64,000 nucleotides of DNA. Origin: Eledone cirrhosa. Taxonomy: Eukaryota. Positions 24,559-64,000 of the stretch are shown in pieces. The stretch's first letter is position 1; the number at the start of each line of letters is the position of its first letter. A model generated the notes under the pieces. It was not told the origin of the DNA, ran no database searches, and saw nothing but the letters and a program-made list of their open reading frames with translations. The DNA lies in NCBI GenBank assembly GCA_964016885.1, contig OZ024757.1, positions 34,968,001 through 35,032,000 of the forward strand, read 5' to 3'. Made by a program: the position numbers and the translations under genes.

Positions 24559-24590
<32 letters not shown>

Positions 24591-34095: not shown

Positions 34096-34984
34096 GTGTT
34101 ACAACTCAATATATATATATTTGGGTTGTAACATATTCCCGCCGGTGAAATAAAAATTTTAATAGAAAAACGGCGGGAATATATGTTACAACCCAATCTA
34201 TATATATTTGAGTTGTAACATATATTCCCGCCGTTGAAATAAAAATTTTAATAGAAAAACAGCGGGAATATATGTTACAATCCAATCTACATATATTTGG
34301 GTTGTAACATATATTCCCGCCGTTGAAATAAAAATTTTAATAGAAAAACGTCGGGAATATATGTTACAACGCAACCTATATATGTTTGGGTTGTAACATA
34401 TATTCCCGCCGTTGAAATAAAATTTTAATAGAAAAACGGCGGGAATATATGTTACAACCCAACCTATATATGTTTGGGTTGTAATATATATTCCCGCCGT
34501 TTTTCTGTTAAAATTTTTATTTCAACGGCGGGAATATATGTTACAACCCAAATATATGTAGATTGGGTTGTAACATATATTCCCGCCGTTTTTCTATTAA
34601 AATTTTTATTTCGACGGCGGGAATATATGTTACAACCCAAATATATGTAGATAGGGTTGTAACATATATTCCCGCCGTTTTTCTATTAAAATTTTTATTT
34701 CAACGGCGGGAATATATGTTACAACCCAAATATATGTAGATTGGATTGCAACATATATTCCCGCCGTTTTTCTATTAAAATGTTTATTTCAACGGTGAGA
34801 ATATATGTTACAACCCAAATATATATAGATTGGGCTGTAACATATATTCCCGCCGTTTTTCTATTAAAATTTTTATTTCAACGGCGGGAATATATGTTAC
34901 AACCCAAATATATATAGATTGGGTTGTAACATATATTCCCGCCGTTTTTCTATTAAAATTTTTATTTCAACGGCGGGAATATAT
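34096..34984. repeat. 89-bp palindromic minisatellite array (4 forward + 6 reverse loops)
   Basis: Same unit with one extra copy, which accounts for the longer 2763-bp A unit. Confidence 0.96.
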
Positions 34985-37803: not shown

Positions 37804-37855
<52 letters not shown>

Positions 37856-39428: not shown

Positions 39429-39466
<38 letters not shown>

Positions 39467-41237
39467 TACATATATATGCACAGATATATACATTTAAATA
39501 TATATATTTATATATATATACACGCGCGCACACACACCTATACGTAGATATGGGTGTGTGTATAGCTGGTATATATATATATGTATGGGTGAGTGTATAG
39601 CTGGTATATATATATATATATATATAGGTGTGTGTCCTTCTTTCTGCTGTTTTCCGTTTTTCGCTGCTATTTCTAAAGTGTCCATACATGCTAGAAATAG
39701 CAGTCAAATACACCAAACAAACTGCACACCCGCAACATTTTTGCCTCGATTTTTGCGATTAAGTAAGACAAGAGTTATCTTTCTTGGCAAATTGTTAAAA
39801 AACTTTTGCCTGATTTTAAGCCAAAGTTTTTTAATGGCTGCCACTTCCGGTTTTTGTTGTGCGTCTACAGGACTGCAGTAAACCTGCTAGAAATAGCAGT
39901 CATAGAAACACACTCACATATATTTATTTATGAGGGATTCTCAACGTGGGGTGCACGCCCCACAGGGGATAATTTGAATATCCCCCTCTTTATATCAATT
40001 AGCACTAACTCTCTCCCTCTCTATATCTACTACACGGCACTCTCTTCCAATACCCCTCTCTATATGAAGTAACACCAAACTCTCCCCCTCTCTATATATT
40101 AAGCACTAAGTCAGGAATTTTTTTCTTCTTTCGTGCAGAGAGAGTAAAGTTGATTAAATCTACTGCAGTGAATTACTGGTATTTTATTTAATAAAAATTA
40201 AAATTTACTATTTGTCTTCGTTTAATTTTCGTTTTTCTTTACATAGTTTCGTTTCGTTAAATGTCTCCAGAATTTGTTTTTACTTTTACCGGATATTGAA
40301 GGTGTAAACTTGGTGTTGTCTAGAAACGTGTTAGAAATATTTTTCTTTTAATTGTGAAGAATTTAACCGCAAAGTAAGTTTTTTTTACTGTTTATTTGTG
40401 GCTGGGACAACGTATGGTATGTGTTAATGTAAATGGTGAAGGTTTAAAGATTCTTTTTACAACTGAAAATCAGTTTGTTGTTGCTGCTAATTACTTAACG
40501 CATGGAATAGATTAAAAAAATACAGGATTGTTTCTCGGAAGAGAGGAAGAAGAAACAAATCACAGAAGCGGGTAGCACACACATTTGGGACCACATACAA
40601 CACAAAAACAGGTAATCCACACATCTGGGACCACATACAACACACCAGCAGGTAATACATACATCTAGGACCACATAAGCAGGTAATACACACATCTAGG
40701 ACCACATACAACACACAAGCAGGTAATACACACATCTAGGACCACATACAACACACAAGCAGGTAATACACACATCTAGGACGACATACAACCAAAGGCA
40801 GGCGAAAGGGGTGGACAAACGAGCTGCTACTAGAACAAAAGATAACAGTATCGCGAGGAGCACTGGGAAACCTCTCTAATGATTTTTTAGGCAAGCCAGC
40901 ACGTCTGCAGCGTTACCTCGGGCGATGGCGAGGCTGAGGAGCTGGAACAACCAAGTGCCCTCACGAGCTTCACCAGTCACCTTCGTCAGGCTAGCCGCCA
41001 GTGAAGATAGGAATCTCGCAGTCAGTATCCTGACTCCCCCAAACGCCACAGGCTGGAAAATGTAGTTGGCCAACAGATCACATTATTACTTAACAGTGAT
41101 AGATATTCTGTCTAAAGGAGGGGCGTACAACAGGCGGCCCGCGGGCCACAATCGAGCCCACCTGACCAGTCAGAGTGGCCCGCAATGACTCTTGTAGGCT
41201 TATTTAGAATTTTTTCCATACCCGTAATACTTCTGTT

Positions 41238-41825
41238 AGTTGACCTATACTAAAGGACTTCACTGATAGGGTTATATGTGTTATAGTTTACCAGTTGACC
41301 TATACTAAAGGACTTCACTGATAGGGTTATATGTGTTATAGTTTCCCAGTTGACCTATACTAAAGGACTTCACTGATAGGGTTATATGTGTTATAATTTC
41401 CCAGTTGACCTATACTAAAGGACTTCACTGATAGGGTTATATGTGTTATAGTTTCCCAGTTGACCTATACTAAAGGACTTCACTGATAGGGTTATATGTG
41501 TTATAGTTTCCCAGTTGACCTATACTAAAGAGCTTCACTGATAGAGTTATATGTGTTATAGTTTCCCAGAGGGCTTCACTGATAGGGTTATATGTGTTAT
41601 AGTTTCCCAGTTGACCTATACTAAAGGACTTCACTGATAGGGTTATATGTGTTATAGTTTCCCAGTTGACCTATACTAAAGGACTTCACTGATAGGGTTA
41701 TATGTGTTATAGTTTCCCAGTTGACCTATACTAAAGGACTTCACTGATAGGGTTATATGTGTTATAGTTTCCCAGTTGACCTATACTAAAGGGCTTCACT
41801 GATAGAGTTATATGTGTTATAGTTT
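41238..41825. repeat. 55-bp VNTR, about 11 units (one truncated)
   Basis: Same unit and same flanks as 8669-9586. Confidence 0.97.
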
Positions 41826-42397
41826 GAAACAAACTACCCGCATCAGTTATTATACTTTTATAACACCGCTATATTACCTACATGAAAGAGGTAAATATTT
41901 ATTTCTCTTGTCTTCTTAAATGTATAGAACATTTTTCTTATATATATTCTTAACATAGCTAGGACCGTTTATTATTTACTAGTCTCTACTCCTAGGACTT
42001 TGCTGGTCTCATGTCCCCTCCATCAACACACACTCGGTAGAAAGCTGGTCGTCAGAGGTAAAGTGGCCCTGATTACAGGTCTAGTATTGAAGCCTTTCGG
42101 CTTGAGCCTTGCTGATGCTGACAGAGTTCCTGTGGTAGTTTTGGTAGCGCAGGTGACATTTTATTGTGTTTAGGTACCGGCTAGTGCGGACACAGAGAGC
42201 ACAACCAGGTGGTGAGCTGGCAACGACCAAGTGTAGAGGGCCAGCTTTGAAATTCGAGCGACGGAGTGAACTAGTAAAAGAGGCAGGGTAAGCAGCATTG
42301 GTTCTAACGGTGGGACTAGAACGGAGGTTGGGTGGTGCTGGGGGTGGGCTAACAGCTAACAGTTGTAGGAGTGGTGGGGCTTTGCTAGGATTAATTT

Positions 42398-44752
42398 TTA
42401 CATCTGTCTGTGAACTCTTGAAAAAGCAACATACAATTGTCCAGGGTTAAATACTTGCTCAGGGAGGAACAGACCCACTTTATCATGTATTTGACCATGG
42501 TTCTTGTTGATTGTCATGGCATATGACAGTCTTAATGGAAACTGGGGTCTTTCCAAAGTAAAAAGGATGTTGGCACCACTGGGGCTAACTTCAGTCTTGG
42601 GATCAAAACACACCTGCCCATCAAAGGACCATAGATATGAGAAGCTTTGATAAAATGTTTATGCAGTTCTACTACTTCTAATCTTGTGCCATTACATAAT
42701 CTGTTCTGGATTGAAATATTCCATAGAAGCATTATTATTGATCCTGCTTTTAATTGGAGTTTGTGAGGCGGCATCCCAGAAGGTGTAAGCAAGTTCATTT
42801 AGCTTGAACCAGGCAGCAAGGGTCCCTGCATTTCTACCACAACCTGAGCATTGCCTCTTTGAAAGTAAACTCTGTTTGTTCTCCAGGTGTGTGGCTAGGC
42901 TGTATACTGTATGTGATGTACCATGAAGCTTAAATTCGGAGAGACACGACACTGCTTCTGGCTGAGACACATACCTGCAACAAAGATAGGTTCTTATTTC
43001 ATCATGGTTGTGTTGGTTCTGAGCCTCATTAGGTAATGCATTATTCGTTACTTCTATAGATGTACAATCATGCCCCATGTAACATATTTAAAGAGGTACT
43101 TGACACTTTTTACAGAAGAGCAAACTTCAACATTAATATGTGCACAATATTTCTTAAGCAAAAAGGCATTAAATGGCACAACATTCCTGTTATCTACTGA
43201 ATGTCATCCAATTTACACTGCAGTTCCTGTCTTGCACCTCCTGTACTCTGGGTATCCATTTAGGTTCAATAATGTTTCCCTTCTGTAGGTTTTTGGATAG
43301 TTCTTTTGCAAAAATCCATTTTGTATAAATGGGGGAAAAGGGTTTCCAGAACCACATGGCCCATGGATCATAAACTTTTAAACCTGCTCATGTAGTACTT
43401 GATCATCTTCCAATGCAGGTATTTCTGCTGACACGATTCTGTCAATGTCTTCTCTGTTTCTTATCTTGTCTTCATTTCTTAAGGCTCAGTGTTATCATCT
43501 GTTTAGATAATTCATTAAACCATTATACTCATCCACTCACAATTGGGCTTGATTGTTCCTCAAATATTGAAGCCTGCATCCCTCTACTTTCATATAGGCT
43601 TCCACTAAATACTGCTAAAATAATTTACCTGCCCTATATATCGCACTAAATCCTCCTCTATATGCTATACTGTATATGTAATACTCCTGCATTGTCAGTC
43701 TATTGCAAACACAGGTCCTGCATTCCTCTCCATGTCACTATGCCACCAAAATTCACCATTATGGGTCGGTCATGAGGTCCAAGTGGCATGAATTATGTGA
43801 TATTTTCTGAGGAGGATGGTCTTTAGGAAAGATGATAATATCTCTTTGTACAGGTGGTCGGCCCTCAATCCCCCACAAAACAACAGCTGTCATTACTAGT
43901 TGGTAAATTATAGCAGCTCATATCTGATCCTCTTCTAAATCTTAATTCACAGTTCTGTACACGACAATTTTCTCTTCTTGCACTTTGCTGTTTGATGCCA
44001 TGCATTGTATTGTACAATTCGACATATGGATTACATTCATGCAACACCTCTCTTATCATAGCCATTTTTTGTGGTGAGCACTCATTATTTGTTGGTACTA
44101 GGGCGGTGGATTGGCAGTATCGGTAGAGCGTCAGACACCATGCTTTGCAGCATAGGGTTATGGCCCTTTACGTTCTGGGTTCAAATCCCTCCAAGGTTGA
44201 CTTTGTTTTCATCCTTATGAGGTCGATAGAATAAAGTACCAGTAATTGCTAGCCTTGTGCCGGAAACAATTATTTGGTCGTACTTCCAATCTGTGCTACA
44301 CACCTTCGTTCCCATCAATAATATATAACTGGCCATATTGTGGTGTATTTTCTGCAGGTTACAGAGGTGGGGGTGTAGTGATATGTTTGACCCTGAATAT
44401 GAAAGCTATACGGGCCTCTGCCGGGTGGTAACACCAAATGAAGTGAAATAAATGTAGTTTTAATTGCAGATGTTTCTGTGAAATCAACTGCTTCCTGGCC
44501 TCTTTCAAAGAGATTTCTCAGTCTCTCGGGGTATATTTGCAATGGTGGCAACACTACCTTTCCTTTATTACAACAGTTACAATTTTCATTTCTAAATTTC
44601 AAAGCTCCACAATGATCACACGAAACATTCATATCACTAATATGAAATTCTTCTACATTTCCATTAATATTAATTGTTGGCCAATTTCTCTTACGACGCT
44701 CATTATCCATTCTTCTCTGTCTGAATGTTTTCCAGTCTAAGTCTATTTGCAT
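42398..44752 (-). pseudogene. Helitron RepHel pseudogene copy B3
   Basis: Near-identical to copy B1, with an extra frameshift in the PIF1 C-terminal part (ORFs 42398-42613 and 42532-42798). Confidence 0.9.
44100..44268 (+). mobile_element. SINE copy in Helitron B3
   Basis: Paralogous to 11854-12022. Confidence 0.85.
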
Positions 44753-44920
44753 GGAATAATTATATTCTGTTGTTTATTATGTAATTAAATAGCTCTGTAC
44801 AATACATAGAGCATTCTTCTTTTCTTTACCTTTTCTATGGAAATACAAGAACAAACATATATATATATATATGTATATATGTGTGTATATACATAAACAA
44901 GACTGTTATTACTCCAACCA

Positions 44921-47900
44921 GATGAAACTCTGTCATGTAATGTTATGGACATCTCTGCCCCTGTGGCTAATAATTCTGTCATGTAATGTTATGGACATCT
45001 CTGCCCTGTGGCTAATAATTCTGACATGTAATGTTATGGACATCGCTGCCCCTGTGGCTAATAATTCTGACATGTAATGTTATGGACATCTCTGCCCTGT
45101 GGCTAATAATTCGGAGAGAGATGAAACACGTGAGGGATTAGAGAGAGATAAAACAAGTGAGGGATTAGAGTGTTGAAACAAGAGAGAGAGAGAGAGCGAG
45201 ATGAAATGAGACAGGGAGAGCGAGATGAAACGCGAGAGTGAGAGAAGCGAGATGAAACGAGAGAGTGAGAGCGAGATGAAACGAGAGAGAGAGAGAGCGA
45301 GATGAAACGAGACAGAGAGAGCGAGATTTAATGAGAGAGAGAGAGAGCGGGATGGAACGAGACAGAGAGGAAACGAGAGAGAGAGGAAACGAGAGAGAGG
45401 AAACGAGAGTAGAGAGCGAGATGAAACAGGAGAGAGAGAGCGAGATGAAACGAGAGGGAGAGAGAGATTAAACGAGGGAGATAGAGATGAAACGAGAGAG
45501 AGGAAGAGAGAGATGGAACGAGAGAGAGGAAGACAGAGATGAAACGAGAGAGAGAGAGAGCGCGAGATGAAACGAGAGAGAGAGAGCGCGAGATGAAACG
45601 ACAGAGAGAGAGACAGATGAAAGGAGGGAGATAGAGATGAAACGAGAGAGAGGAAGAGAGAGATGGAACGAGCGAGAGGAAGAGAGAGATGGAACGAGAG
45701 AGAGGAAGACAGAGATAAAACGAGAGAGAGCGAGATGAAACGAGAGAGAGAGAGCGCGAGATGAAACTCTGTCATGTAACGTTATGGACATATCTGCCCT
45801 TGGGGCTATAATTGTCATGTAATGTTATGGACATCTCTGCCCCTGTGGCTAATAATTCTGTCATGTAATGTTATGGACATCTCTGCCCCTGTGGCTAATA
45901 ATTCTTTCATGTAATGTTATGGACATCTCGGCCCCTGTGGCTAATAATTCTGACATGTAATGTTATGGACATCTCTGCCCCTGTGGCTAATAATTCTGAC
46001 ATGTAATGTTATGGACATCTCTGCCCTGTGTCTAATAATTCTGACATGTAATGTTATGGACATCTCTGCCCCTGTGGCTAATAATTCTGACATGTAATGT
46101 TATGGACATCTCTGCCCCTGTGGCTAATAATTCTGCCATGTAATGTTATGGACATCTCTGCCCCTGTGGCTAATAATTCTGGCATGTAATGTTATGGACA
46201 TCTCTGCCCCTGTGGCTTATAATTCTGACATGTAATGTTATGGACATCTCTGCCCTGTGGCTAATAATTCTGACATGTAATGTTATGGACATCTCTGCCC
46301 CTGTGGCTAATAATTCTGAGAGAGATGAAACAAGTGAGGGATTAGAGATAGATAAAACAAGTGAGGGATTAGAGTGTTGAAACAAGAGAGAGAGAGAGCG
46401 AGATGAAATGAGACAGGGAGAGCGAGATGAAACGCGCGAGTGAGAGAAACGAGATGAAACGAGAGAGTGAGAGCGAGATGAAACGAGAGAGAGAGAGAGC
46501 GAGATGAAACGAGACAGAGAGAGCGAGATGTAATGAGAGAGAGAGAGAGCGGGATGGAACGAGACAGAGAGGAAACGAGAGAGAGGAAACGAGAGTAGAG
46601 AGCGAGATGAAACGAGAGGGAGAGAGAGATGAAACGAGAGAGCGAGATAGAGATGAAACGAGAGAGAGGAAGAGAGAGATGGAACGAGAGAGAGGAAGAC
46701 AGAGATGAAACGAGAGAGAGAGAGAGAGAGCGAGATGAAACAAGAGAGAGAGAGCGCGAGATGAAACGAGAGAGAGAGAGCGCGAGATGAAACGAGAGAG
46801 AGAGAGCGCGAGATGAAACGACAGAGAGAGAGACAGATGAAAGGAGGGAGATAGAGATGAAACGAGAGAGAGGAAGATAGAGATGGAACAAGAGAGAGCA
46901 AGAGAGAGATGGAACGAGAGAGAGGAAGTCAGAGATGAAACGAGATAGAGAGAGAGCGAGATGAAACTCTGTCATGTAATGTTATGGACATATCTGCCCT
47001 TGGGGTTAATAATTGTCATGTAATGTTATGGACATCTCTGCCCCTGTGGCTAATAATTCTGTCATGTAATGTTATGGAGATCTCTGCCCCTGTGGCTAAT
47101 AATTCTGATAGAGATGAAACAAGTGAGGGATTAGAGAGAGATAAAACAAGTGAGGGATTAGAGTGTTGAAACAAGAGAGAGAGAGAGCGAGATGAAATGA
47201 GACAGGGAGAGCGAGATGAAACGCGAGAGTGAGAGAAGCGAGATGAAACGAGAGAGTGAGAGCGAGATGAAACGAGAGAGAGAGAGAGCGAGATGAAACA
47301 AGACAGAGAGAGCGAGATGTAATGAGAGAGAGAGAGAGCGGGATGGAACGAGACAGAGAGGAAACGAGAGAGAGAGGAAACGAGAGAGAGGAAACGAGAG
47401 TAGAGAGCGAGATGAAACAGGAGAGAGAGAGCGAGATGAAACGAGAGGCAGAGAGAGATGAAACGAGGGAGAGGAAGAGAGAGATGGAACGAGAGAGAGG
47501 AAGACAGAGATGAAACGAGAGAGAGAGAGCGAGATGAAACGAGAGAGAGAGAGCGCGAGATGAAACGAGAGAGAGAGAGCGCGAGATGAAACGACAGAGA
47601 GAGAGACAGATGAAAGGAGGGAGATAGAGATGAAACGAGAGAGAGGAAGAGAGTGATGGAACGAGCGAGAGGAAGAGAGAGAGAGTGAGATGAAACGAGA
47701 GAGAGGGAAAGAGAGAGCGCGAGATGAAACTCTGTCATGTAATGTTATGGACATCTCTGCCCCTGTGGCTAATAATTCTGTCATGTAATGTTATGGACAT
47801 CTGTGCCCCTGTGGCTAATAATTCTGACATGTAATGTTATGGACATCTCTGCCCTGTGGCTAATAATTCTGACATGTAATGTTATGGACATCTCTGCCCC

Positions 47901-50900
47901 TGTGGCTAATAATTCTGACATGTAATGTTATGGAATCTCTGCCCCTGTGGCTAATAAATCTGTCATGTAATGTTACGGACATCTTTGCCCCTGTGGCTAA
48001 TAAATCTGTCATGTAATGTTATGGACATCTCTGCCCCTGTGGCTAATAATTCTGACATGTAATGTTATGGACATCTCTGTCCCTGTGGCTAATAATTCTG
48101 ACATGTAATGTTATGGACATCTCTGCCCCTGTGGCTAATAATTCTGACATGTAATGTTATGGACATCTGTGCCCCTGTGGCTAATAATTCTGACATGTAA
48201 TGTTATGGACATCTCTGCCCCTGTGGCTAATAATTCTGAGAGAGATGAAACAAGTGAGGGATTAGAGAGAGATGAAACAAGTGAGGGATTAGAGTGTTGA
48301 AACAAGAGAGAGGAAGAGAGAGTGAGAGCGAGATCAAACGAGAGAGAGAGAGCGAGATGAAATGAGAGAGAGAGAGCGAGATGAAACAAGACAGAGAGAG
48401 CGGGATGAAACAAGACAGAGAGAGCGAGAGCGAGATGAAACGAGACAGAGAGTGCGAGATGAAACGAGAGAGAGAGAGCGAGATGAAATGAGAGAGAGAG
48501 AGCGAGATGAAATGAGAGAGAGAGAGCGAGATGAAACGAGAGAGTGAGAGCGAGATGGAACGAGAGAGAGAGAGAGAGAGAGCGAGATGAAATGAGAGAG
48601 AGAGAGCGAGATGAAATGAGAGAGAGAGAGCGAGATGAAACGAGACAGAGAGAGCGGGATGAAACGAGACAGAGAGAGCGAGAGCGAGATGAAACGAGAC
48701 AGAGAGAGCGAGATGAAACGAGAGAGAGAGAGCGGGATGAAATGAGAGAGAGAGAGCGAGATGAAATGAGAGAGAGAGAGCGAGATGAAACGAGAGAGTG
48801 AGAGCGAGATGGAACGAGACAGAGAGAGCGAGATGAAACGAGAGTGGGAGAGCTAGATGAAACGAGAGAGAGAGGAAATGAGAGAGAGAGGAAACGAGAG
48901 AGACGAAACGAGAGAGAGGAAACGAGAGTAGAGAGCGAGATGAAACAGGAGAGAGAGAGCGAGATGAAACAGGAGAGAGATAGCGAGATGAAACGGGAGG
49001 GAGAGAGAGATGAAACGAGAGAGCGAGAGAGAGATAGAGGGAGATGAAACGACAGAGAGAGAGACAGATGAAACGAGGGAGATAGAGATGAAACGAGAGA
49101 GAGGAAGAGAGAGATGGAACGAGTGAGAGGAAGAGAGACATGGAACGAGAGAGAGGAAGGCAGAGATGAAACGAGAGAGAGACAGAGCAAGATGAAACGA
49201 GAGAGAGAGATTAAACGAGAGAGAGGAAGAGAGAGATGGAACGAGAGAGAGGAAGAGAGAGATGGAACGAGAGAGAGGAAGACAGAGATGAAACGAGAGA
49301 GAGAGAGATCGAGATGAAACGAGAGAGAGGATGAGAGAGAGCGCAAGATGAAACGAGAGAGAGAGAGAGAGAGCGAGATGAAACGAGAGAGAGGAAGAGA
49401 GAGAGCGCGAGATGAAACGAGAGAGAGTAAGAGAGAGAGCGCGAGATGAAACGAGAGAGTGAGAGCGAGATGAAATGAGAGAGAGAGAGAACGAGATGAA
49501 ATGAGAGAGAGAGAGAGCGAGATGAAATGAGACATAGAGAGATGAAACGAAAGAGAGATGAAACGAGAAAGAGAGGAAACGAGAGAGTGGAAACAAGAGT
49601 AGAGAGCGAGATGAAACAGGAGTGAGAGAGCGAGATGAAACAGGAGAGAGAGAGCGAGATGAAACGAGAGGGAGCGAGAGATGAAACGAGAGAGCGAGAG
49701 AGAGATAGAGGGAAATGAAACGACAGAGAGAGAGACAGATGAAACGAGGGATATAGAGATGAAACGAGAGAGAGATATGAAACGAGAGAGAGGAAGAGAG
49801 AGATAGAACGAGAGAGAGGAAGAGAGAGATGAAACGAGAGAGAGGAAGACAGAGGTGAAACGAGAGAGAGAGAGAGCGAGATGAAACGAGAGAGAGAGCG
49901 AGATGAAACGAGAGAGAGGAAGAGAGAGAGCGCGAGATGAAACTCTGTCATGGACATCTCTGCCCCTGTGGCTAATAATTCTGTCATGTAATGTTATGGA
50001 CAACTCTGTCCCTGTGGCTAATAATTCTGTCATGTAATGTTATGGACATCTCTGCCCCTGTGGCTAATAATTCTGACATGTAATGTTATGGAATCTCTGC
50101 CCCTGTGGCTAATAAATCTGTCATGTAATGTTACGGACATCTCTGCCCCTGTGGCTAATAAATCTGTCATGTAATGTTATGGACATCTCTGTCCCTGTGG
50201 CTAATAATTCTGACATGTAATGTTATGGACATCTCTGCCCCTGTGGCTAATAATTCTGAGAGAGATGAAACAAGTGAGGGATTAGAGAGAGATGAAACAA
50301 GTGAGGGATTAGAGTGTTGAAACAAGAGAGAGAGAGGAAGAGTGAGTGAGAGCGAAATCAAACGAGAGAGAGCGAGATGAAATGAGAGAGTGAGAGCGAG
50401 ATGAAACGAGAGAGAGAGTGAGAGCGAGATGAAATGAGAGAGAGAGAGCGAGATGAAATGAGAGAGAGAGAGCGAGATGAAACGAGACAGAGAGAGCGGG
50501 ATGAAACGAGACAGAGAGAGCGAGAGCGAGATGAAACGAGAGAGAGAGAGCGAGATGAAACGAGAGAGAGAGAGCGAGATGAAATGAGAGAGAGAGAGCG
50601 AGATGAAATGAGAGAGAGAGAGCGAGATGAAACGAGAGAGTGAGAGCGAGATGGAACGAGACAGAGAGAGCGAGATGAAACGAGAGTGGGAGAGCTAGAT
50701 GAAACGAGAGAGAGAGGAAACGAGAGAGAGAGGAAACGAGAGTAGAGAGCGAGATGAAACAGGAGAGAGAGAGCGAGATGAAACAGGAGAGAGAGAGAGA
50801 GATGAAACGAGAGAGCGAGAGAGAGATAGAGGGAGATGAAACGACAGAGAGAGAGACAGATGAAACGAGGGAGATAGAGATGAAACGAGAGAGAGAGATG

Positions 50901-53900
50901 AAACGAGAGAGAGGAAGAGAGAGATGGAACGAGAGAGAGGAAGAGAGAGATGGAACGAGAGAGAGGAAGACAGAGATGAAACGAGAGAGAGAGAGAGCAA
51001 GATGAAACGAGAGAGAGAGATGAAACGAGAGAGAGGAAGAGAGAGATGGAACGAGAGAGAGGAAGACAGAGATGAAACGAGAGAGAGAGAGATTGAGATG
51101 AAACGAGAGAGTGAGAGCTAGATGAAACGAGAGAGAGAGGAAACGAGAGAGAGAGGAACCGAGAGAGAGAGGAAACGAGAGAGAGGAAACGAGAGAGAGG
51201 AAACGAGAGTAGAGAGCAAGATGAAACAGGAGAGAGAGAGCGAGATGAAATGAGAGGGAGGGAGAGATGAAACGAGAGAGCGAGAGTGAGATAGAGGGAG
51301 ATGAAACGAGAGAGTGATAGCTAGATGAAACGAGAGTGAGAGGAATAGAGAGATGGAACGAGAGAGAGGAAGACAGATATGAAACGAGAGAGAGAGAGAG
51401 CGAGATGAAACGAGAGAGAGGAAGAGAGAGAGCGCGAGATGAAATGAGAGAGAGAGAGAGCGAGATGAAACGAGAGAGAGAGAGCGAGTTGAAATGAGAG
51501 AGTGAGAGTGAGATGAAACGAGAGAGAGAGAGAGAGAGAGCGAGATGAAATGAGAGAGAGAGAGCGAGATGAAACGAGACAGAGAGAGCGAGATGAAACG
51601 AGAGTGGGAGAGCTAGATGAAACGAGAGAGAGAGGAAACGAGAGAGAGAGAGGAAACGAGAGAGACGAAACGAGAGAGAGGAAATGAGAGTAGAGAGCGA
51701 GATGAAACAGGAGAGAGAGAGCGAGATGAAACAGGAGAGAGAGAGCGAGATGAAACAGGAGAGAGAGAGCGAGATGAAACGAGAGGGAGAGAGAGATGAA
51801 ACGAGAGAGCGAGAGAGAGATCGAGGGAGATGAAACGACAGAGAGAGAGACAGATGAAACGAGGGAGATAGAGATGAAACGAGAGAGAGAGATGAAACGA
51901 GAGAGAGGAAGAGAGAGATGGAACGAGAGAGAGGAAGTCAGAGATGAAACGAGAGAGAGAGAGAGAGCAAGATGAAACGAGAGAGAGAGATGAAACGAGA
52001 GAGAGGAAGAGAGAGATGGAATGAGAGAGAGGAAGAGAGAGATGGAACGAGAGAGAGGAAGCCAGAGATGAAACGAGAGAGAGAGAGAGAGAGATGAAAC
52101 GAGAGAGAGGAAGAGAGAGAGAGCGCATGATGAAACGAGAGAGAGAGAGCGAGATGAAACGAGAGAGAGGAAGAGAGAGAGCGCGAGATGAAACGAGAGA
52201 GAGGAAGAGAGAGAGCGCGAGATGAAACGAGAGAGAGAGAGCGAGATGAAATGAGAGAGTGAGAGTGAGATCAAACGAGAGAGAGAGAGCGAGATGAAAT
52301 GAGAGAGAGAGAGCGAGATGAAATGAGAGAGAGAGAGCGAGATGAAACGAGACAGAGAGAGCGGGATGAAACGAGACAGAGAGATCGAGATGAAATGAGA
52401 GAGAGAGAGCAAGATGAAATGAGAGAGAGAGAGCGAGATGAAACGAGAGAGTGAGATCGAGATGGAACGAGTCAGAGAGAGCGAGATGAAACGAGAGAGT
52501 GAGAGCTAGATGAAACGAGTGAGAGGAAACGAGAGAGAGAGGAAACGCCAGAGAGGAAATGAGAGAGAGGAAACGAGAGTAGAGAGCAAGATGAAACAGG
52601 AGAGAGAGAGAGCGAGATGAAACCGGAGAGAGAGAGCGAGATGAAACGAGAGGGAGGGAGAGATGAAACGAGAGAGCGAGAGAGAGATAGAGGGAGATGA
52701 AACAAGAGAGTGACAGCTAGATGAAACGAGAGAGAGAGGAATAGAGAGATGGAACGAGAGAGAGGAAGACAGATATGAAACGAGAGAGAGGAAGAGAGAG
52801 AGCGCGAGATGAAATGAGAGAGAGAGAGAGCGAGATGAAACGAGAGAGAGGAAGAGAGAGAGCGCGAGATGAAAGTCTGTCATGTAATGTTATGGACATA
52901 TCTGCCCTTGGGGCTAATAATTGTCATTTAATGTTATGGACATATCTGCCCTTGGGGCTAATAATTGTCATGTAATGTTATGGATATCTCTGCCCCTGTG
53001 GCTAATAATTCTGTCATGTAATGTTATGGACATCTCTGCCTCTGTGGCTAATAATTCTGTCATGTAATGTTATGGACATCTCTGCCCCTGTGGCTAATAA
53101 ATCTGACATGTAATGTTATGGACATCTGTGCCCAATAAATCTGTCATGTAATGTTATGGACATCTCTGCCCCTGTGGCTAATAATTCTGAGAGAGATGAA
53201 ACAAGTGAGGGATTAGAGAGAGATGAAACAAGTGAGGGATTAGAGTGTTGAAACAAGAGAGAGGAAGAGAGAGTGAGAGCGAGATCAAACGAGAGAGAGA
53301 GAGCAAGATGAAATGAGAGAGAGAGAGCGAGATGAAACAAGACTGAGAGAGCGGGATGAAACGAGACAGAGAGAGCGAGAGCGAGATGAAACGAGACAGA
53401 GAGAGCGAGATGAAACGAGAGAGAGAGAGCGAGATGAAATGAGAGAGAGAGAGCGAGATGAAATGAGAGAGAGAGAGCGAGATGAAACGAGAGAGTGAGA
53501 GCGAGGTGGAACGAGAGAGAGAGAGAGAGAGCGAGATGAAATGAGAGAGAGAGAGCGAGATGAAACGAGACAGAGAGAGCGGGATGAAACGAGACAGAGA
53601 GAGCGAGAGCGAGATGAAACGAGACAGAGAGAGCGAGATGAAACGAGAGAGAGAGAGAGCGGGATGAAATGAGAGAGAGAGAGCGAGATGAAATGAGAGA
53701 GAGAGAGCGAGATGAAACGAGAGAGTGAGAGCGAGATGGAACGAGACAGAGAGAGCGAGATGAAACGAGAGTGGGAGAGCTAGATGAAACGAGAGAGAGA
53801 GGAAACGTGAGAGAGAGGAAACGAGAGAGACGAAACGAGAGAGAGGAAACGAGAGTAGAGAGCGAGATGAAACAGGAGAGAGAGAGCGAGATGAAACAGG

Positions 53901-56163
53901 AGAGAGATAGCGAGATGAAACGAGAGGGAGAGAGAGATGAAACGAGAGAGCGAGAGAGAGATAGAGGGAGATGAAACGACAGAGAGAGTGACAGATGAAA
54001 CGAGGGAGATAGAGATGAAACGAGAGAGAGGAAGAGAGAGATGGAACGAGAGAGAGGAAGAGAGAGATGGAACGAGAGAGAGGAAGACAGAGATGAAACG
54101 AGAGAGAGACAGAGCAAGATGAAACGAGAGAGAGAGATTAAACGAGAGAGAGGAAGAGAGAGATGGAACGAGAGAGAGGAAGAGAGAGATGGAACGAGAG
54201 AGAGGAAGACAGAGATGAAACGAGAGAGAGAGAGATCGAGATGAAACGAGAGAGAGGAAGAGAGAGAGCGCAAGATGAAACGAGAGAGAGAGAGAGAGAG
54301 CGAGATGAAACGAGAGAGAGGAAGAGAGAGAGCGCGAGATGAAACGAGAGAGAGTAAGAGAGAGAGCGCGAGATGAAACGAGAGAGTGAGAGCGAGATGA
54401 AATGAGAGAGAGAGAGAACGAGATGAAATGAGAGAGAGAGAGAGCGAGATGAAATGAGACATAGAGAGATGAAACGAGAGAGAGATGAAACGAGAAAGAG
54501 AGGAAACGAGAGAGTGGAAACAAGAGTAGAGAGCGAGATGAAACAGGAGTGAGAGAGCGAGATGAAACAGGAGAGAGAGAGTGAGATGAAACGAGAGTGA
54601 GGGAGAGATGAAACGAGAGAGCGAGAGAGAGATAGAGGGAAATGAAACGACAGAGAGAGAGACAGATGAAACGAGAGTGAGAGGAATAGAGAGATAGAAC
54701 GAGAGAGAGGAAGACAGATATGAAACGAGAGAGAGAGAGAGCGAGATGAAACGAGAGAGAGGAAGAGAGAGAGCGCGAGATGAAATGAGAGAGAGAGAGA
54801 GCGAGATGAAACGAGAGAGAGGAAGAGAGAGAGCGCGAGATGAAAAGAGAGAGAGAGAGAGAGCGAGATGAAAAGAGAGAGAGGAAGACAGAGAGCGCGA
54901 GATGAAACGAGAGAGAGAGAGCGAGATGAAATGAGAGAGTGAGGGTGAGATGAAACGAGAGAGAGAGAGATAGCGAGATGAAATGTGAGAGAGAGAGCGA
55001 GATGAAATGAGAGAGAGAGAGAGCGAGATGAAACGAGACAGAGAAAGCGGGATGAAACAAGACAGAGAGATCGAGAGGAAATGAGAGACAGAGAGAGCAA
55101 GATGAAACGAGAGAGTGAGAGCGAGATGGAACGAGACAGAGAGAGCGAGATGAAACGAGAGAGTGAGGAAACGAGAGAGAGAGGAAACGAGACAGAGAAA
55201 ACGAGAGTAGAGAGCGAGATGAAACAGGAGAGAGAGAGAGCGAGATCAAACAGGAGACTGAGAGCGAGATGAAACGAGAGGGAGGGAGAGATGAAACGAG
55301 AGAGCGAGAGAGAGATAGAGGGAGATGAAACTACAGAGAGAGAGACAGATGAAACGAGGGAGATAGATATGAAACGAGAGAGCGAGATGAAACGAGAGAG
55401 TGAGAGCGAGATGGAACGAGACAGAGAGAGCGAGATGAAACGAGAAAGAGAGAGCGAGATGTAATGAGAGAGAGAGAGAGTGGGATGGAACGAGACAGAG
55501 AGGAAACGAGAAAGAGAGGAAACGAGAGAGAGAGAGGAAACGAGAGAGAGGAAACGAGAGTAGAGAGCGAGATGAAACAGGAGAGAGAGAGCGAGATGAA
55601 ACAGGAGAGAGAGAGCGAGATGAAACGAGAGGGAGGGAGAGATGAAACGAGAGAAGGAGAGAGAGATAGAGGGAGATGAAACGACAGAGAGGGAGACAGA
55701 TGAAACGAGGGAGATAGAGATGAAACGAGAGAGGAAGAGAGAGATGGAACGAGAGAGAGGAAGAGAGAGATGAAACGAGAGAGAGGAAGACAGAGATGAA
55801 TAGAGAGAGAGAGAGAGAGCGAGATGAAACGAGAGAGAGGAAGAGAGAGAGCGCGAGATGAAACGAGAGAGAGAGAGCGCGAGATGAAACTCTGTCATGT
55901 AATGTTATGGACATATCTGCCCTTGGGGCTAATAATTGTCATGTAATGTTATGGACGTCTCTGCCCCTGTGGCTAATAATTCTGTCATGTAATGTTATGG
56001 ACATCTCTGCCCCTATGGCTAATAATTATGTCATGTAATGTTATGGACATCTCCGCCCCTGTGGCTAATAATTCTGACATGTAATGTTATGGACATCTCT
56101 GCCCCTCTGGCTAATAATTCTGACATGTAATGTTATGGACATCTCTGCCCCTGTGGCTAATAA
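44921..56163 (-). repeat. Left arm of the composite satellite: seven 46-bp blocks alternating with six GA-rich tracts
   Basis: GA tracts at about 45112-45769, 46318-46969, 47108-47731, 48238-49945, 50258-52877, 53189-55891, with 46-bp blocks between them, all in reverse orientation. Confidence 0.95.
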
Positions 56164-56170
56164 ATCAGAA

Positions 56171-59100
56171 TTATTAGCCACAGGGGCAGAGATGTCCATA
56201 ACATTACATGTCAGAATTATTAGCCACAGGGGCAGAGATGTCCATAACATTACATGTCAGAATTATTAGCCACAGGGACAGAGATGTCCATAACATTACA
56301 TGTCAGAATTATTAGCCAGAGGGGCAGAGATGTCCATAACATTACATGTCAGAATTATTAGCCACAGGGGCAGAGATGTCCATAACATTACATGACAGAT
56401 TTATTAGCCACAGGGGCAGAGATGTCCATAACACTACATGTCAGAATTATTAGCCACAGGGGCAGAGATGTCGATAACATTACATTACATAATTATTAGC
56501 CACAGGGGCAGAGATGTCCATAACATTACATGACAATTATTAGCCCCAAGGGCAGATATGTCCATAACATTACATGACAGACTTTCATCTCGCGCTCTCT
56601 CTCTCCCTCGTTTCATCTCGCGCTCTCTCTCTTCCTCTCTCTCGTTTCAACTCGCTCTCTCTCGTTTCATCTCGCGTTAACTCTCTTCCTCTCTCTCGTT
56701 TCATCTCGCTCTCTCTCTCTCGTTTCATCTCTGTCTTCCTCTCTCTCGTTCCATCTCTCTCTTCCTCTCTCTCGTTCCATCTCTCTCTTCCTCTCTCTCG
56801 TTTCATCTCTCTCTCTCGTTTCATCTCTCTCTCTCGTTTCATCTCTATCTCCCTCGTTTCATCTGTCTCTCTCTCTGTCGTTTCATCTCCCTCTAACTCT
56901 CTCTCGCTCTCTCGTTTCATCTCTCTCTCCCTCTCGTTTCATCTCGCTCTCTCTCTCCTGTTTCATCTCGCTCTCTCTCTCCTGTTTCATCTCGCTCTCT
57001 CTCTCCTGTTTCATCTCGCTCTCTCTCTCCTGTTTCATCTCGCTCTCTACTCTCGTTTCCTCTCTCTCATATCCTCTCTCTCGTTTCCTCTCTCTCTCGT
57101 TTCCTCTAGCTCTCACTCTCTCGTTTCATCTCGCTCTCTCTCTCTCATTTCATCTCGCTCTCTCTCTCTCATTTCATCTCGCTCTCTCTGTCTCGTTTCA
57201 TTTCGCTCTCTCTCTCTCTCATTTCATCTCGCTATCTCTATCTCGTTTCATCCCGCTCTCTCTGTCTCGTTTCATCTCGCTCTCTCTCTCTCATTTCATC
57301 TCGCTCTCTTTCTCTCATTTCATCTCGCTCTCTCTCTCTCTCGTTTCATCTCGCTCTCACTCTCTCATTTCATCTCGCTCTCTCTCTCTCGTTTGATCTC
57401 GCTCTCACTCTCTCTTCCTCTCTCTCTCTTGTTTCAACACTCTAATCCCTCACTTGTTTCATCTCTCTCAGATTTATTAGCCACAGGGGCAGAGATGTCC
57501 ATAACATTACATGACGAATTTATTAGCCACAGGGGCAGAGATGTCCATAACATTACATGACAGAATTATTAGCCACAGGGGCAGAGATGTCCATAACATT
57601 ACATGACATAATTATTAGCCACAGGGGCAGAGATGTCCATAACATTACATGACTGAATTATTACCACAGGGGCAGAGATGTACATAACATTACATGACAA
57701 TTATTAGCCCCAAGGGCAGATATGTCCATAACATTACATGACAATTATTAGCCCCATGGGCAGATATGTCCATAACATTACATGACAGACTTTCATCTCG
57801 CGCTCCCTCTCTCTCGTTTCATCTCGCCCTCTCTCTCTTCCTCTCTCTCGTTTCATCTCGCTCTCTCTCTCTCTCGTTTCATCTCGCTCTCTCTCTCTCT
57901 CGTTTCATCTTTGTCTTCCTCTCTCTCGTTCCATTTCTCTCTTCCTCTCTCTCTCGTTCCATCTCTCTCTCGTTTCATCTAGCTCTCACTCTCTCGTTTC
58001 ATCTCGCTCTCTCGTTTCATCTCTATCTCCCTCGTACATCTGTCTCCCTCTCTGTCATTTCATCTCCCTCTATCTCTCTCTCGCTCTCTCGTTTCATCTC
58101 TCCCCCCCCTCTCGTTTCATCTCGCTCTCTCACTCCTGTTTCATCTCGCTCTCTCTCTCCTGTTTCATCTCGCTCTCTACTCTCATTCCATCTCTCTCTC
58201 GTTTCATCTAGCTCACACTCTCTCGTTTCATCTCGCTCTCTCTGTCTCGTTCCATCTCGCTCTTTCTGTCTCGTTTCATCTCGCTCTCTCTCTCTCATTT
58301 CATCTCGCTCTCTCTCTCTCATTTCATCTCGCTCACTCTCTCTCTCTCGTTTCATCTCACTCTCACTCTCTCATTTCATCTCGCTCTCTCTCTCTCTCGT
58401 TTCATCTCACGCTCTCTCTCTTCCTCTCTCTCGTTTCATCTCGCTCTCTATCTCTCTCTCGTTTCATCACGCGCTCTCTCTCTTCCTCTCTCTCTTTTCA
58501 TCTCTCTCTCTCTCTCTCTCCTTTCATCTCTCTCTTCCTCTCTCTCGTCCCATCTCTCTCTTCCTCTCTCTCGTTTCATCTCTCTCTCTCGTTTCATCTC
58601 TATCTCCCTCGTTTCATCTGTCTCTCTCTCTGTCGTTTCATCTCCCTCTATCTCTCTCTCGCTCTCTCGTTTCATCTCTCTCTCCCTCTCGTTTCATCTC
58701 GCTCTCTCTCTCCTGTTTCATCTCGCTCTCTCTCTCTCCTGTTTCATCTCGCTCTCTACTCTCGTTTCCTCTCTCTCGTTTCCTCTCTCTCTCATTTCCT
58801 CTCTCTCTCGTTTCATGTAGCTCTCACTCTCTCGTTTCATCTCGCTCTCTCTCTCTCATTTCATCTCGCTCTCTCTCTCTCGTTTCATCTCGCTCTCTCT
58901 GTCTCGTTTCATCTCGCTCTCTCTGTCTCTCATTTCATCTCGCTCTCTCTGTCTCGTTTCATCCCGCTCTCTCTGTCTCGTTTCATCTCGCTCTCTCTCT
59001 CTCATTTCATCTCACTCCCACTCTCTCATTTCATCTCGCTCTCTCTCTCTCGTTTCATCTCGCTCTCACTCTCTCTTCCTCTTTCTCTCTTGTTTCAACA

Positions 59101-62100
59101 CTTTAATCCCTCACTTGTTTCATCTCTCTCTAATCCCTCACTTGTTTCATCTCTCTCAGAATTATTAGCCACAGGGGCAGAGATGTCCATAACGTTACAT
59201 GTCAGAATTATTAGCCACAGGGGCAGAGATGTCCATAACATTACATGTCAGAATTATTAGCCACAGGGGCAGAGATGTCCATAACATTACATGACAGATT
59301 TATTAGCCACAGGGGCAGAGATGTCCATAACATTACATGACGAATTTATTAGCCACAGGGGCAGAGATGTCCATAATATTACATGACAGAATTATTAGCC
59401 ACAGGGGCAGAGATGGCCATAACATTACATGACAGAATTATTAGCCACAGGGGCAGAGATGTCCATAACATTACATGACAATTATTAGCCCCTAGGGCAG
59501 ATATGTCCATAACATTACTTGACAGACTTTCATCTGGCGCTCTCTCGTTTCATCTCTTCCTCTCTCTCGTTTCATCTCACTCTCTCTCTCTCTCGTTTCA
59601 TCTCGCACTCTCTCTCTTCCTCTCTCTCGTTTTATCTTGCTCTCTCTCTCTCTCGTTTCATCTCTATCTCCCTCGTTTCATCTGTCTCTCTCTCTGTCGT
59701 TTCATCTCCCTCTATCTCTCTCTCGCTCTCTCGTTTCATCTCTCTCTCCCTCTCGTTTCATCTCGCTCTCTCTCTCCTGTTTCATCTCGCTCTCTCTCTC
59801 TCCTGTTTCATCTCGCTCTCTACTCTCGTTTCCTCTCTCTCGTATCCTCTCTCTCGTTTCCTCTCTCTCTCGTTTCCTCTCTCTCTCGTTTCCTCTAGCT
59901 CTCACTCTCTCGTTTCATCTCGCTCTCTCTCTCTCATTTCATCTCGCTCTCTCTCTCTCGTTTCATCTCGCTCTCTCTCTCTCTCTCGTTTCATCTTTGT
60001 CTTCCTCTCTCTCGTTCCATTTCTCTCTTCCTCTCTCTCTCGTTCCATCTCTCTCTCGTTTCATCTCGCTCTCTCGTTTCATCTCTATCTCCCTCGTTTC
60101 ATCTGTCTCTCTCTCTGTCGTTTCATCTCCCTCTATCTCTCTCTCGCTCTCTCGTTTCATCTCTCCCTCCCTCTCGTTTCATCTCGCTCTCTCACTCCTG
60201 TTTCATCTCGCTCTCTCTCTCCTGTTTCATCTCGCTCTCTCTCTCCTGTTTCATCTCGCTCTCTACTCTCGTTCCATCTCTCTCTCGTTTCATCTAGCTC
60301 ACACTCTCTCGTTTCATCTCGCTCTCTCTGTCTCGTTCCATCTCGCTCTCACTCTCTCGTTTCATCTCGCTCTCTCTGTCTCTCATTTCATCTCGATCTC
60401 TCTGTCTCGTTTCATCCCGCTCTTTCTGTCTCTTTTCATCTCGCTCTCTCTCTCTCATTTCATCTCGCTCTCTCTCTCTCGTTTCATCTCTCTCTCACTC
60501 TCTCATTTCATCTCGCGCTCTCTCTCTCTCGTTTCATCTCGCGCTCTCTCTCTCTTCCTCTCTCTCGTTTCATCTCGCTCTCTCTCTCTCTCTCGTTTCA
60601 TCACGCGCTCTCTCTCTTCCTCTCTCTCGTTTCATCTCGATCTCTCTCTCTGTCGTTTCATCTCTGTCTTCCTCTCTCTCGTTCCATCTCTCTCTTCCTC
60701 TCTCTCGTTCCATCTCTCTCTTCCTCTCTCTCGTTTCATCTCTCTCTCTCGTTTCATCTCTATCTCCCTCGTTTCATCTGTCTCTCTCTCTGTCGTTTCA
60801 TCTCCCTCTATCTCTTTCTCGCTCTCTCGTTTCATCTCTCTCTCCCTCTCGTTTCATCTCGCACTCTCTCTCCTGTTTCATCTCGCTCTCTCTCTCTCCT
60901 GTTTCATCTCGCTCTCTACTCTCGTTTCCTCTCTCTCGTTTCCTCTCTCTCGTTTCCTCTCTCTCGTTTCCTCTCTCTCTCGTTTCCTCTCTCTCTCGTT
61001 TCATGTAGCTCTCACTCTCTCGTTTCATCTCGCTCTCTCTCTCTCATTTCATCTCGCTCTCTCTCTCTCATTTCATCTCGCTGTCTCTGTCTCGTTTCAT
61101 CTCGCTCTCTCTGTCTCTCATTTCATCTCGCTCTCTCTGTCTCGTTTCATCCCGCTCTCTCTGTCTCGTTTCCTATCGCTCTCTCTCTCTCATTTCATCT
61201 CACTCTCTCTCTCTCATTTCATCTCGCTCTCTCTCTCTCGTTTCATCTCGCTCTCACTCTCTCATTTCATCTCGCTCTCTCTCTCTCGTTTGATCTCGCT
61301 CTCACTCTCTCTTCCTCTCTCTCTCTTGTTTCAACACTTTAATCCCTCACTTGTTTCATCTCTCTCTAATCCCTCACTTGTTTCATCTCTCTCAGAATTA
61401 TTAGCCACAGGGGCAGAGATGTCCATAACGTTACATGTCAGAATTATTAGCCACAGGGGCAGAGATGTCCATAACATTACATGTCAGAATTATTAGCCAC
61501 AGGGGCAGAGATGTCCATAACATTACATGTCAGAATTATTAGCCACAGGGGCAGAGATGTCCATAACATTACATGATAGATTTATTAGCCACAGGGGCAG
61601 AGATGTCCATAACATTACATGACAGAATTATTAGCCACAGGGGCAGAGATGGCCATAACATTACATGACAGAATTATTAGCCACAGGGGCAGATATGTCC
61701 ATAACATTACATGACAGACTTTCATCTCGCGCTCTCTCGTTTCATCTCGCTCTCTCTCTCTTCCTCTCTCTCGTTTCATCTCACTCTCTCTCTTTCTCGT
61801 TTCATCTCGCACTCTCTCTCTTCCTCTCTCTCGTTTTATCTTGCTCTCTCTCTCTCTCGTTTCATCTCTGTCTTCCTCTCTCTCGTTCCATCTCTCTCTT
61901 CCTCTCTCTCGTTTCATCTCTCTCTCTCGTTTCAACTCTATCTCCCTCGTTTCATCTGTCTCTCTCTCTGTCGTTTCATCTCCCTCTATCTCTCTCTCGC
62001 TCTCTCGTTTCATCTCTCTCTCCCTCTCGTTTCATCTCGCTCTCACTCTCTCATTTCATCTCGCTCTCTCTCTCTCTAGTTTGATCTCGCTCTCACTCTC

Positions 62101-63570
62101 TTTTCCTCTCTCTCTCTTGTTTCAACACTCTAATCCCTCACTTGTTTCATCTCTCTCAGAATTATTAGCCACAGGGGCAGAGATGTCCATAACTTTACAT
62201 GTCAGAATTATTAGCCACAGGGGCAGAGATGTCCATAACATTACATGACAGTTTTATTAGCCACAGGGGCAGAGATGTCCATAACATTACATGACGAATT
62301 TATTAGCCACAGGGGCAGAGATGTCCATAACATTACATGACAGAATTATTAGCCACAGGGGCAGAGATGTCCATAACATTACATGACATAATTATTAGCC
62401 ACAGGGGCAGAGATGTCCATAACATTACATGACAGAATTATTAGCCACAGGGGCAGATATGTCCATAACATTACATGACAATTATTAGCCCCAAGGGCAG
62501 ATATGTCCATAACATTACATGACAGACTTACATCTCACGCTCTCTCTCTCTCTCGTTTCATCTCGCGCTCTCTCTCTTCCTCTCTCTCGTTTCATCTCGC
62601 TCTCTCTCTCTCTCTTGTTTCATCTCGCGCTCTCTCTCTTCTTCTCTCTCGTTTCATCTCGCTCTCTCTGTCTCTCGTTTCAACTTTGTCTTCCTCTCTC
62701 TCGTTCCATCTCTCTCTTCCTCTCTCTCTCGTTCCATCTCTCTCTCGTTTCATCTAGCTCTCACTCTCTCGTTTCATCTCGCTCTCTCTGTCTCGTTCCA
62801 TCTCGCTCTCTCTCTCTCGTTTCATCTCTATCTCCCACGTTTCATCTGTCTCTCTCTCTGTCATTTCATCTCCCTCTATCTCTCTCTCGCTCTCCCGTTT
62901 CATCTCTACCTCCCTCTCGTTTCATCTCGCTCTCTCACTCCTGTTTCATCTCGCTCTCTCTCTCCTGTTTAATCTCGCTCTCTACTCTCGTTCCATCTCT
63001 CTCTCGTTTCATCTAGCTCTCACTCTCTCGTTTCATCTCGCTCTCTCTGTCTCTCATTTCATCTCGATCTCTCTGTCTCGTTTCATCCCGCTCTCTCTCT
63101 CTCGTTTCATCTCACTCTCACTCTCTCATTTCATCTCGCTCTCTCTCTCTCGTTTCATCTCGCGCTCTCTCTCTTCCTCTCTCTCGTTTCATCTCGCTCT
63201 CTCTCTCTCGTTTCATCACGCGTTCTCTCTCTTCCTCTCTCTCGTTTCATCTCTCTCTCTCGTTTCATCTCTATCTCCCTCGTTTCATCTGTCTCTCTCT
63301 CTGTCGTTTCATCTCCCTCTATCTCTCTCTCGCTCTCTCGTTTCATCTCTCTCTCCCTCTCGTTTCAACTCGCTCTCTCTCTCCTGTTTCATCTCGCTCT
63401 CTCTCTCTCCTGTTTCATCTCGCTCTCTACTCTCGTTTCCTCTCTCTCGTTTCCTCTCTCTCGTTTCCTCTCTCTCTCGTTTCCTCTCTCTCTCGTTTCA
63501 TTTAGCTCTCACTCTCTCGTTTCATCTCGCTCTCTCTCTCTCATTTCATCTCGCTCTCTCTCTCTCGTTT
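56171..63570 (+). repeat. Right arm of the composite satellite: five 46-bp blocks alternating with five CT-rich tracts
   Basis: CT tracts at about 56580-57469, 57788-59157, 59525-61393, 61717-62157, 62525-63570. Confidence 0.95.
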
Positions 63571-63658
63571 CCATAGAAAAGGTAAAGAAAAGAAGAATGC
63601 TCTATGTATTGTACAGAGCTATTTAATTACATAATAAACAACAGAATATAATTATTCC

Positions 63659-64000
63659 ATGCAAATAGACTTAGAATGGAAAACATTCAGACAGAGAAGA
63701 ATGGGTAATGAGCGTCGTAAGAGAAATTGGCCAACAATTAATATTAATGGAAATGTAGAAGAATTTCATATTAGTGATATGAATGTTTCGTGTGATCACT
63801 GTGGAGCTTTGAAATTTAGAAATGAAAATTGTAACTGTTGTAATAAAGGAAAGGTTGTGTTGCCACCATTGCAAATATACCCTGAGAGACTGAGAAATCT
63901 CTTTGAAAGAGGCCAGGAAGCAGTTGATTTCACAGAAACATCTGCAATTAAAACTACATTTATTTCACTTCATTTGGTGTTACCACCCGGCAGAGGCCCG
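63659..64000 (+). pseudogene. 5' part of the Helitron RepHel pseudogene in inverted orientation, running off the window
   Basis: 63568-64000 is the reverse complement of 44411-44843 with a few SNPs and encodes MQIDLEWKTFRQRR..CDHCGALKF..CNCCNKGKVVLPPL. Confidence 0.9.

Follow-up and report, generated by a model that had tools for sequence, protein, structure and literature searches.

Within the Eledone cirrhosa assembly GCA_964016885.1, the window considered here is the whole stretch of 64,000 nucleotides at positions 34,968,001 to 35,032,000 of contig OZ024757.1, and it contains an 18.6-kb repetitive block (44922–63570) formed by a composite satellite, the direction of which flips a single time, near the middle of the block. 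On each side the block adjoins the 5′ coding end of a broken Helitron transposon, and the two ends are inverted relative to each other. The structure is most likely a one-off, old rearrangement scar.

Architecture of the satellite block and its Helitron flanks

The satellite is composed of arrays of 3–12 repeat units of 46 bp (46-mers), each array being followed by a CT-rich tract (0.4–2.7 kb) and one or two 27-mers, so arranged that the 46-mer arrays make up 22% of the arms. Of the orientation-marking motifs in 44922–63570, 416 in all, 249 point in reverse and 167 forward, and the orientation changes exactly once, between 56137 and 56186; across this switch the purine fraction per kb changes from 0.70–0.87 to 0.13–0.33. 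An earlier reading made from the letters alone (the sequence-only reading) had placed the reverse satellite up to 56163 and the forward satellite up to 63570, with which these motifs agree. The left arm of 11,242 bp contains seven arrays of 46-mers and six full CT tracts, and the right arm of 7,400 bp contains five arrays and five CT tracts, the last of them truncated, in line with the six and five modules counted before; the differences between the arms claimed at that time are also present, as variants specific to the left or to the right arm. That is to say, two multi-kb subarrays (11.2 and 7.4 kb) stand in opposite orientation within one array, which is the anatomy of a macro-dyad. The window contains no N gap.

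The outer left modules L7–L4 (44922–48239, minus strand) are a short-tract subfamily with CT tracts of 627–657 bp. The short-tract modules L4–L6 have no counterpart in the right arm, and the longest exact matches are 110–129 bp among the L4–L6 tracts and 48–81 bp between these and the right-arm tracts. The inner left modules L3–L1 (48240–56163, minus strand), with CT tracts of 1709, 2621 and 2705 bp, are nearer to the right arm than the outer left modules are when the tracts are compared. After the turn at 56164–56170, the right arm continues with modules R1–R5 (56171–63570, plus strand), whose CT tracts measure 891, 1371, 1870, 442 and 1049 bp, the last being the truncated one. The outer ends of the block differ, since the left one is the start of a CT tract and the right one the middle of a CT tract.

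The left flank (41826–44921, minus strand) is a broken Helitron copy with Rep and helicase remnants, and its 5′ coding end faces the satellite. For the profile search, the frame with its many stops was read through and the stops were written as X; one of the three minus-strand frames over 41826–44773 then matched PF14214 (E = 9e-7; bit score 29.7, cut-off 28.9) and PF21530 (E = 6e-13, likewise higher than its cut-off). Coding remnants of both Rep and the Pif1 helicase, which characterise a Helitron, are thus found together in one frame, and the identity proposed for the flanks holds. When seven single frames were searched against Pfam, four, the flank frame included, had no match, two contained Pif1_2B and one gave a weak PHD match; of the 30 atlas matches for the flank frame, 28 were without a family, and one cluster carried PF14214 on 25% of its members. 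The left-flank Helitron is 97–98% identical to the copies at 9587–12637 and 18810–20980. Its frame is broken up by a repeat resembling a short interspersed element (SINE) at 44105–44246, which occurs also at 11859–12000, 22966–23090 and 23808–23948, and of which a copy within the DNA inserted at 20981–23694 is 75–77% alike. This repeat presumably resembles one from octopus, and an Rfam scan of the whole window at gathering scores, the SINE-like repeat included, gave no match.

The right flank (63568–64000, plus strand) is the 5′ coding end of a Helitron in the inverse orientation, 98.8% identical to 44411–44843 and 99.5% to 24113–24545. It had been described as the reverse complement of 44411–44843, and only five differences are found in the 433 bp. 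Of the inverted Helitron copies claimed to flank the block, what stands is a pair of inverted 5′ coding ends, the right one being represented by the 433 bp up to the end of the window. At the left Helitron/satellite junction (44920–44921) there is a 2-bp AG overlap, as judged against the uninterrupted copy at about 24625, and at the right satellite/Helitron junction (63568–63571) there is a 4-bp TTTC overlap. The right junction lies 77–78 bp deeper in the Helitron than the left one, in line with the offset of about 77 bp and the tttc microhomology described before, and the two therefore fall 77–78 bp apart within a unit of 2.7 kb or more.

The turn and its likely origin

The loop of the turn is the 7-nt ATCAGAA, exactly where it had been placed, and it is wholly accounted for by two truncated 46-mers, with no foreign DNA between them. 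The left side ends at 56166 in a common variant of the 46-mer (13 of 100 units), and the right side opens a normal unit at 56165, so that the two overlap by TC at 56165–56166. Truncated monomers, a small loop and no foreign sequence are also what characterises the turns of Tribolium satellites. Both sides sit inside 46-mer arrays in near-mirror register. The perfect stem is 56 bp, there are eight mismatches within the first 227 bp, and register is lost thereafter. The predicted hairpin at the centre (−162.5 kcal/mol over 300 nt; none of 200 shuffles equally stable) is what any such turn would form. A global alignment brings 6115 bases of the arms together in 105 blocks, 287 of the pairs being mismatches; the longest match at 96% identity or more is 363 bp across the arms, compared with 465 and 354 bp within them. 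The locus is therefore an inverted array and not a 19-kb palindrome in the strict sense; the geometry described in the sequence-only reading is confirmed for the window.

The similarity among modules indicates how the arms have changed. Of the 21-mers, 828 are confined to exactly two of the 12 arm modules, and 97 of these join modules of different arms, where 439 would be expected on average; a count as low as this is reached in 1 of 792 module labellings, and the longest exact tract matches join L1 with L3 (218 bp) and R2 with R3 (201 bp). On account of both, recent duplication has run within the arms. The nearest neighbours of the CT sub-units also sort by arm to a modest degree, in 17 of 21 cases for an incomplete set of 25 sub-units (12 of 462 labellings) and in 30 of 44 for 46 sub-units with imperfect anchors (25 of 462 labellings). 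Other features join the two sides. Two of 100 46-mers, L1u2 and R1u4, carry the variant 17C>G, one in each innermost array; by a calculation made by hand, the chance that a cross-arm pair falls on L1–R1 is 54/1950 (0.03), and on any mirror pair 260/1950 (0.13). This variant is rare in public data (about 0.1% of contig depth in two contig sets, 9 of 823 reads in the read set). The tract-start variant of L2 is found in all five right modules, L2 shares exact matches of 90–163 bp with the five right tracts, and the right tracts resemble L1–L3 more than L4–L6. The sharing of 17C>G, the likeness of L2 to the right arm and the absence of L4–L6 on the right, which one deletion at the TTTC junction would explain, point to a common origin across the turn.

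We favour, with about even confidence, the explanation that the turn is the scar of one old fold-back repair event, by which a Helitron–satellite unit was copied onto itself, the arms then going separate ways. A Helitron copy within the macrosatellite would first have been joined to a satellite block (AG overlap, 44921). After that, a break or a stalled fork within one of the 46-mer arrays would have let the 3′ end of the purine-rich strand prime on its own strand via TC/GA, one or more units back, and copying would have run outward through the satellite and the Helitron. A single deletion at TTTC in the new arm may have taken the outer short-tract modules together with 78 bp of the Helitron, after which the arms would have turned over separately by slippage and unequal exchange while the perfect stem fell to 56 bp. 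By this separate turnover the structure has likely become stable enough to persist, which fits the report that inverted repeats are less stable when their arms are longer, more alike and divided by a short spacer (PMC7999016). What supports fold-back is the 2-bp overlap at the turn, the product expected if a 3′ end had primed on GA in an earlier unit, together with 17C>G in the innermost arrays and the position of the two Helitron junctions, which are separated by no more than 78 bp.

Several observations weigh against this explanation. The inverted microhomology at the turn lies within the range of 2–8 bp that marks fold-back, in its weakest class, and an overlap of 2 bp counts for little as evidence. 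Between the arms no unique, unduplicated spacer is visible, although tandem units would hide one, and the spacer could consist of one or more tandem 46-mers. The modules do not follow a mirror order: the k-mer containment observed is attained in 85 of 120 permutations, and the exclusive k-mer count, which rests largely on the 17C>G site, in 7 of 120. When nine copies of the 433-bp flank segment are compared, the right flank differs from the left at five sites and from the copies at 24113 and 35005 at only two, and at 44555 and 44735 the flanks hold different alleles, both of which segregate among the other copies, so the two flanks are not each other's closest copies. Because the flanks are non-sister, fold-back requires later conversion, and conversion could explain them, as the flank copies look mosaic and 433 bp is a short stretch to judge by. 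In public data, no piece across the turn was found in three contig sets and one read set among the 24 pieces listed of 251, the longest being kept (at most 52 bp), it being the case that contig sets drop rare variants. For a fold-back with independent evolution of the arms, as first proposed, it follows that it is the best single reading and is not established, given the lost mirror order and the non-sister flanks. The wider proposals of the sequence-only reading, by which the turn would be the symmetry axis of a much larger inverted domain and would go back to breakage-fusion repair, are conjectural for a window that takes in 433 bp of the right flank.

The public data come from 11 listed runs, of which seven, from three studies, contain 42000–45120 partly or wholly, five of them holding half of its words or more; four of the 11 were compared with 56118–56217, which yielded 1027 reads and, in the three contig sets, 9, 111 and 113 contigs. 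In these runs the 46-mer is abundant, with the same neighbours as in the window (27-mer, tract start) and the same variants, and for this reason the satellite family is real. The 11 joints listed all fit ordinary tandem continuation by their coordinates. The joints scored as lying on opposite strands in the read set were rejected as support for the turn, these being tandem continuations mapped onto a stretch that holds both orientations. Judging by molecule ends at 56165 and 56169, the library of that read set was probably cut at an AATT site next to the turn, so that it carries less weight on the turn. A metagenome scan for any head-to-head 46-mer junction gave zero matches and is uninformative, since the 46-mer itself also gave no exact match.

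With non-sister flanks and lost mirror order, a picture identical to that of fold-back would also be produced by an inversion that joined two paralogous tandem Helitron–satellite units, with a breakpoint in the satellite of each, the blocks having already diverged and no self-copying being involved. To this possible but distinctly less probable course, the main rival, the non-sister flanks, the different junctions, the arm-specific variants and the missing mirror order are all congenial; within the window itself, units have been duplicated repeatedly and another Helitron contains a second copy of the satellite, and more than 200 such breakpoints, that is, strand switches, have been counted in human HSat3 and beta-satellite arrays (10.1101/2021.07.12.452052). 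It demands, however, that both breaks fall in 46-mer arrays, each time within 22% of the arms, and in near-mirror register, that the variant shared by L1 and R1 be due to chance or later conversion, and that one event more than in fold-back took place. In an assembly artefact, two real satellite blocks would have been joined head to head, either through a chimeric read or because a wrong path was taken in the repeat graph; in favour of this, the lack of any contig piece across the turn in the three contig sets and of any head-to-head joint in the 1027 reads, among those listed, can be cited. A fold-back read chimera yields near-identical mirror arms, which are not seen here: the perfect stem is short, no cross-arm match at 96% or more exceeds the 363 bp given above, there is no N gap, neighbouring units are resolved at differences down to 0.16%, and the variants of the window recur in public runs. 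Misassembly is for this reason considered unlikely.

Two further readings were considered. As a recurrent, conserved dyad centre of the Tribolium kind, the turn would be one of many copies dispersed along with the satellite, perhaps influencing (peri)centromeric chromatin, which we hold to be very unlikely; to just the same low degree do we credit the wider Tribolium-style view that hairpin-prone blocks of purine/pyrimidine skew organise heterochromatin and seed inverted macrosatellite domains. The anatomy would suit such a centre, since in T. freemani arrays turn via truncated monomers without foreign DNA, with loops of 9–27 nt and unequal arms (PMC12581902), microsatellite-like tracts alternate with satellite as in TmSat4 (PMC13081366), and the satellite is abundant in the four public runs. 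Hundreds of copies should nevertheless have yielded a contig of about 60 bp across 56167, by our estimate, and the longest pieces listed are 44–52 bp and end at the turn; contigs of depth 3.5–20 were retained beside depths in the thousands, still with none across the turn among the pieces listed, and the 18.6 kb contain a single switch. A high-copy conserved turn is thus disfavoured. Foldback-type DNA transposons have long, modular, unequal inverted arms. The arms here are also long, modular, unequal and inverted, and one such element inserted in a Helitron would account for this likeness; the flanks, however, are inverted and not colinear, the breakpoints lie 77–78 bp apart with no target duplication, the outer termini are unlike each other, and there is no coding or unique centre. 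The inverted flanks, the missing target-site duplication and the unmatched outer termini contradict this candidate, which is extremely unlikely. To return to the fold-back favoured here, its place among published inverted structures is considered below.

Comparison with published inverted arrays

Strand switches in satellites are well known from human and Tribolium, and the turn described here is a further instance. In anatomy it resembles a satellite macro-dyad and in its centre a fold-back junction. The Tribolium macro-dyads are like it in having unequal, opposite subarrays of several kb, a turn made of truncated monomers, loops of 9–27 nt against 7 nt, and a size of tens of kb. In T. freemani, six conserved turn types are recorded among 1793 two-subarray arrays (PMC12581902), and in T. 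madens dyads reach 75 kb, with thousands of conserved sites, confirmation from raw reads and a conjunction of satellite and microsatellite (PMC13081366). Their turns, unlike the present one, occur in thousands of copies conserved at 95–99.9% and lie at putative (peri)centromeres (PMC12581902, PMC13081366), whereas here there is one turn, whose recurrence, the trait that defines the Tribolium case, was not seen in the public runs (among the pieces listed), and there are Helitron flanks. Array-level dyads have so far been documented exclusively in Tribolium, according to PMC13081366.

In human HSat3 and beta-satellite arrays, the strand likewise switches within a satellite array in heterochromatin-like DNA; the present block differs in its small size, in its composite make-up and in having one and the same transposon segment, inverted, on its two sides. 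Human fold-back duplications show 2–8 bp of microhomology (2 bp in 7 of 13 junctions with short microhomology) and a unique spacer of 766–70,466 bp, with a median of 3.4 kb (PMC3907307). As here, the inverted copy can begin at a 2-bp overlap; the human cases, however, are new and have a spacer and an adjacent deletion (PMC3907307), and the present arms have diverged, with no visible spacer between them. TmSat4 with (AC)n is similar in that variable simple-sequence tracts alternate with satellite (PMC13081366), but here whole arrays of 3–12 46-mers alternate with CT-rich tracts of 0.4–2.7 kb that have a sub-unit order of their own. In the oyster Helentron HINE, a tandem array and microsatellite-like DNA also adjoin a rolling-circle element (PMC7492417); its arrays lie between distinct left and right modules, while both flanks here are the same 5′ coding segment, inverted. 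A HINE with central repeats was on this ground set aside as a candidate.

Regarded as a single rearrangement scar, the turn matters little, and no function is ascribed to it. It offers a clean natural case of the decay of a palindrome with a near-zero spacer, in which the arms were turned over separately, without mutual conversion, and a 56-bp stem was left. If the turn were to recur throughout the genome, array-level dyad symmetry would extend beyond Tribolium and a second system for asking whether the shape of satellites counts for more than their sequence would be available; recurrent centres would mean a Tribolium-style macro-dyad architecture in a distant animal. As to the satellite itself, a full-text literature search for the two 27-letter monomer motifs returned no paper, supplements and most subscription papers lying outside that search, and no work on this repeat appears in the octopus and cephalopod satellite literature by title or opening of the abstract. 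Since satellite consensus lists usually sit in supplements, the family may already be in print.

The surrounding macrosatellite

The rest of the window, 1–44921, is a nested macrosatellite, in which tandem copies of a 2.7-kb unit agree at up to 99.8% and longer units, which contain the broken Helitron, at 96–99%. At 24202–34984 there are about four tandem copies of a 2677-bp unit, consisting of a Helitron 5′ fragment, upstream DNA and an 89-bp array, which are 98.4–99.8% alike and represent a very recent higher-order amplification. The arrays of the 89-bp unit (9–10 copies) are located at 1346–2147, 26066–26865, 28743–29542, 31420–32219 and 34097–34984, each at the truncation point of the Helitron 5′ piece in the 2.7-kb unit. 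The 89-bp unit itself is predicted to form a pair of adjoining hairpins (−23.4 kcal/mol, z −8.9, 0 of 200 shuffles), which gives every array a match to its own opposite strand.

A separate, single-module copy of the satellite, together with about 0.9 kb of other DNA, lies within another Helitron copy (20981–23694, plus strand). This insertion has a 3-bp TGA duplication and holds 11 46-mers and one CT tract. Its first 13–17 bases are inverted, and its tip (20981–20997) matches the purine strand of the satellite over 12–13 bp and a motif of the 2.7-kb unit over 13–14 bp; the tip may be a miniature dyad. The core motif of the CT tracts is found at 425, 3105, 13156, 25145, 27822, 30499 and 33176, once per copy of the upstream DNA of the 2.7-kb unit and nowhere else outside the arrays, which may be coincidence or may reflect a shared origin.

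Two minisatellites lie just past the 3′ end of what is left of the Helitron coding sequence, one of 55 bp (8669–9586, 18593–18809 and 41238–41825) and one of 40 bp (8032–8233, 17956–18157 and 40561–40792); both are present in each long unit, and their copy numbers differ between units. In addition, nested inverted repeats resembling miniature inverted-repeat transposable elements lie at 4589–7452 and 37158–39981, with arms of about 590 bp that are 91% alike around an AT/AC microsatellite centre, and partial copies of them are present at 14627–15726.

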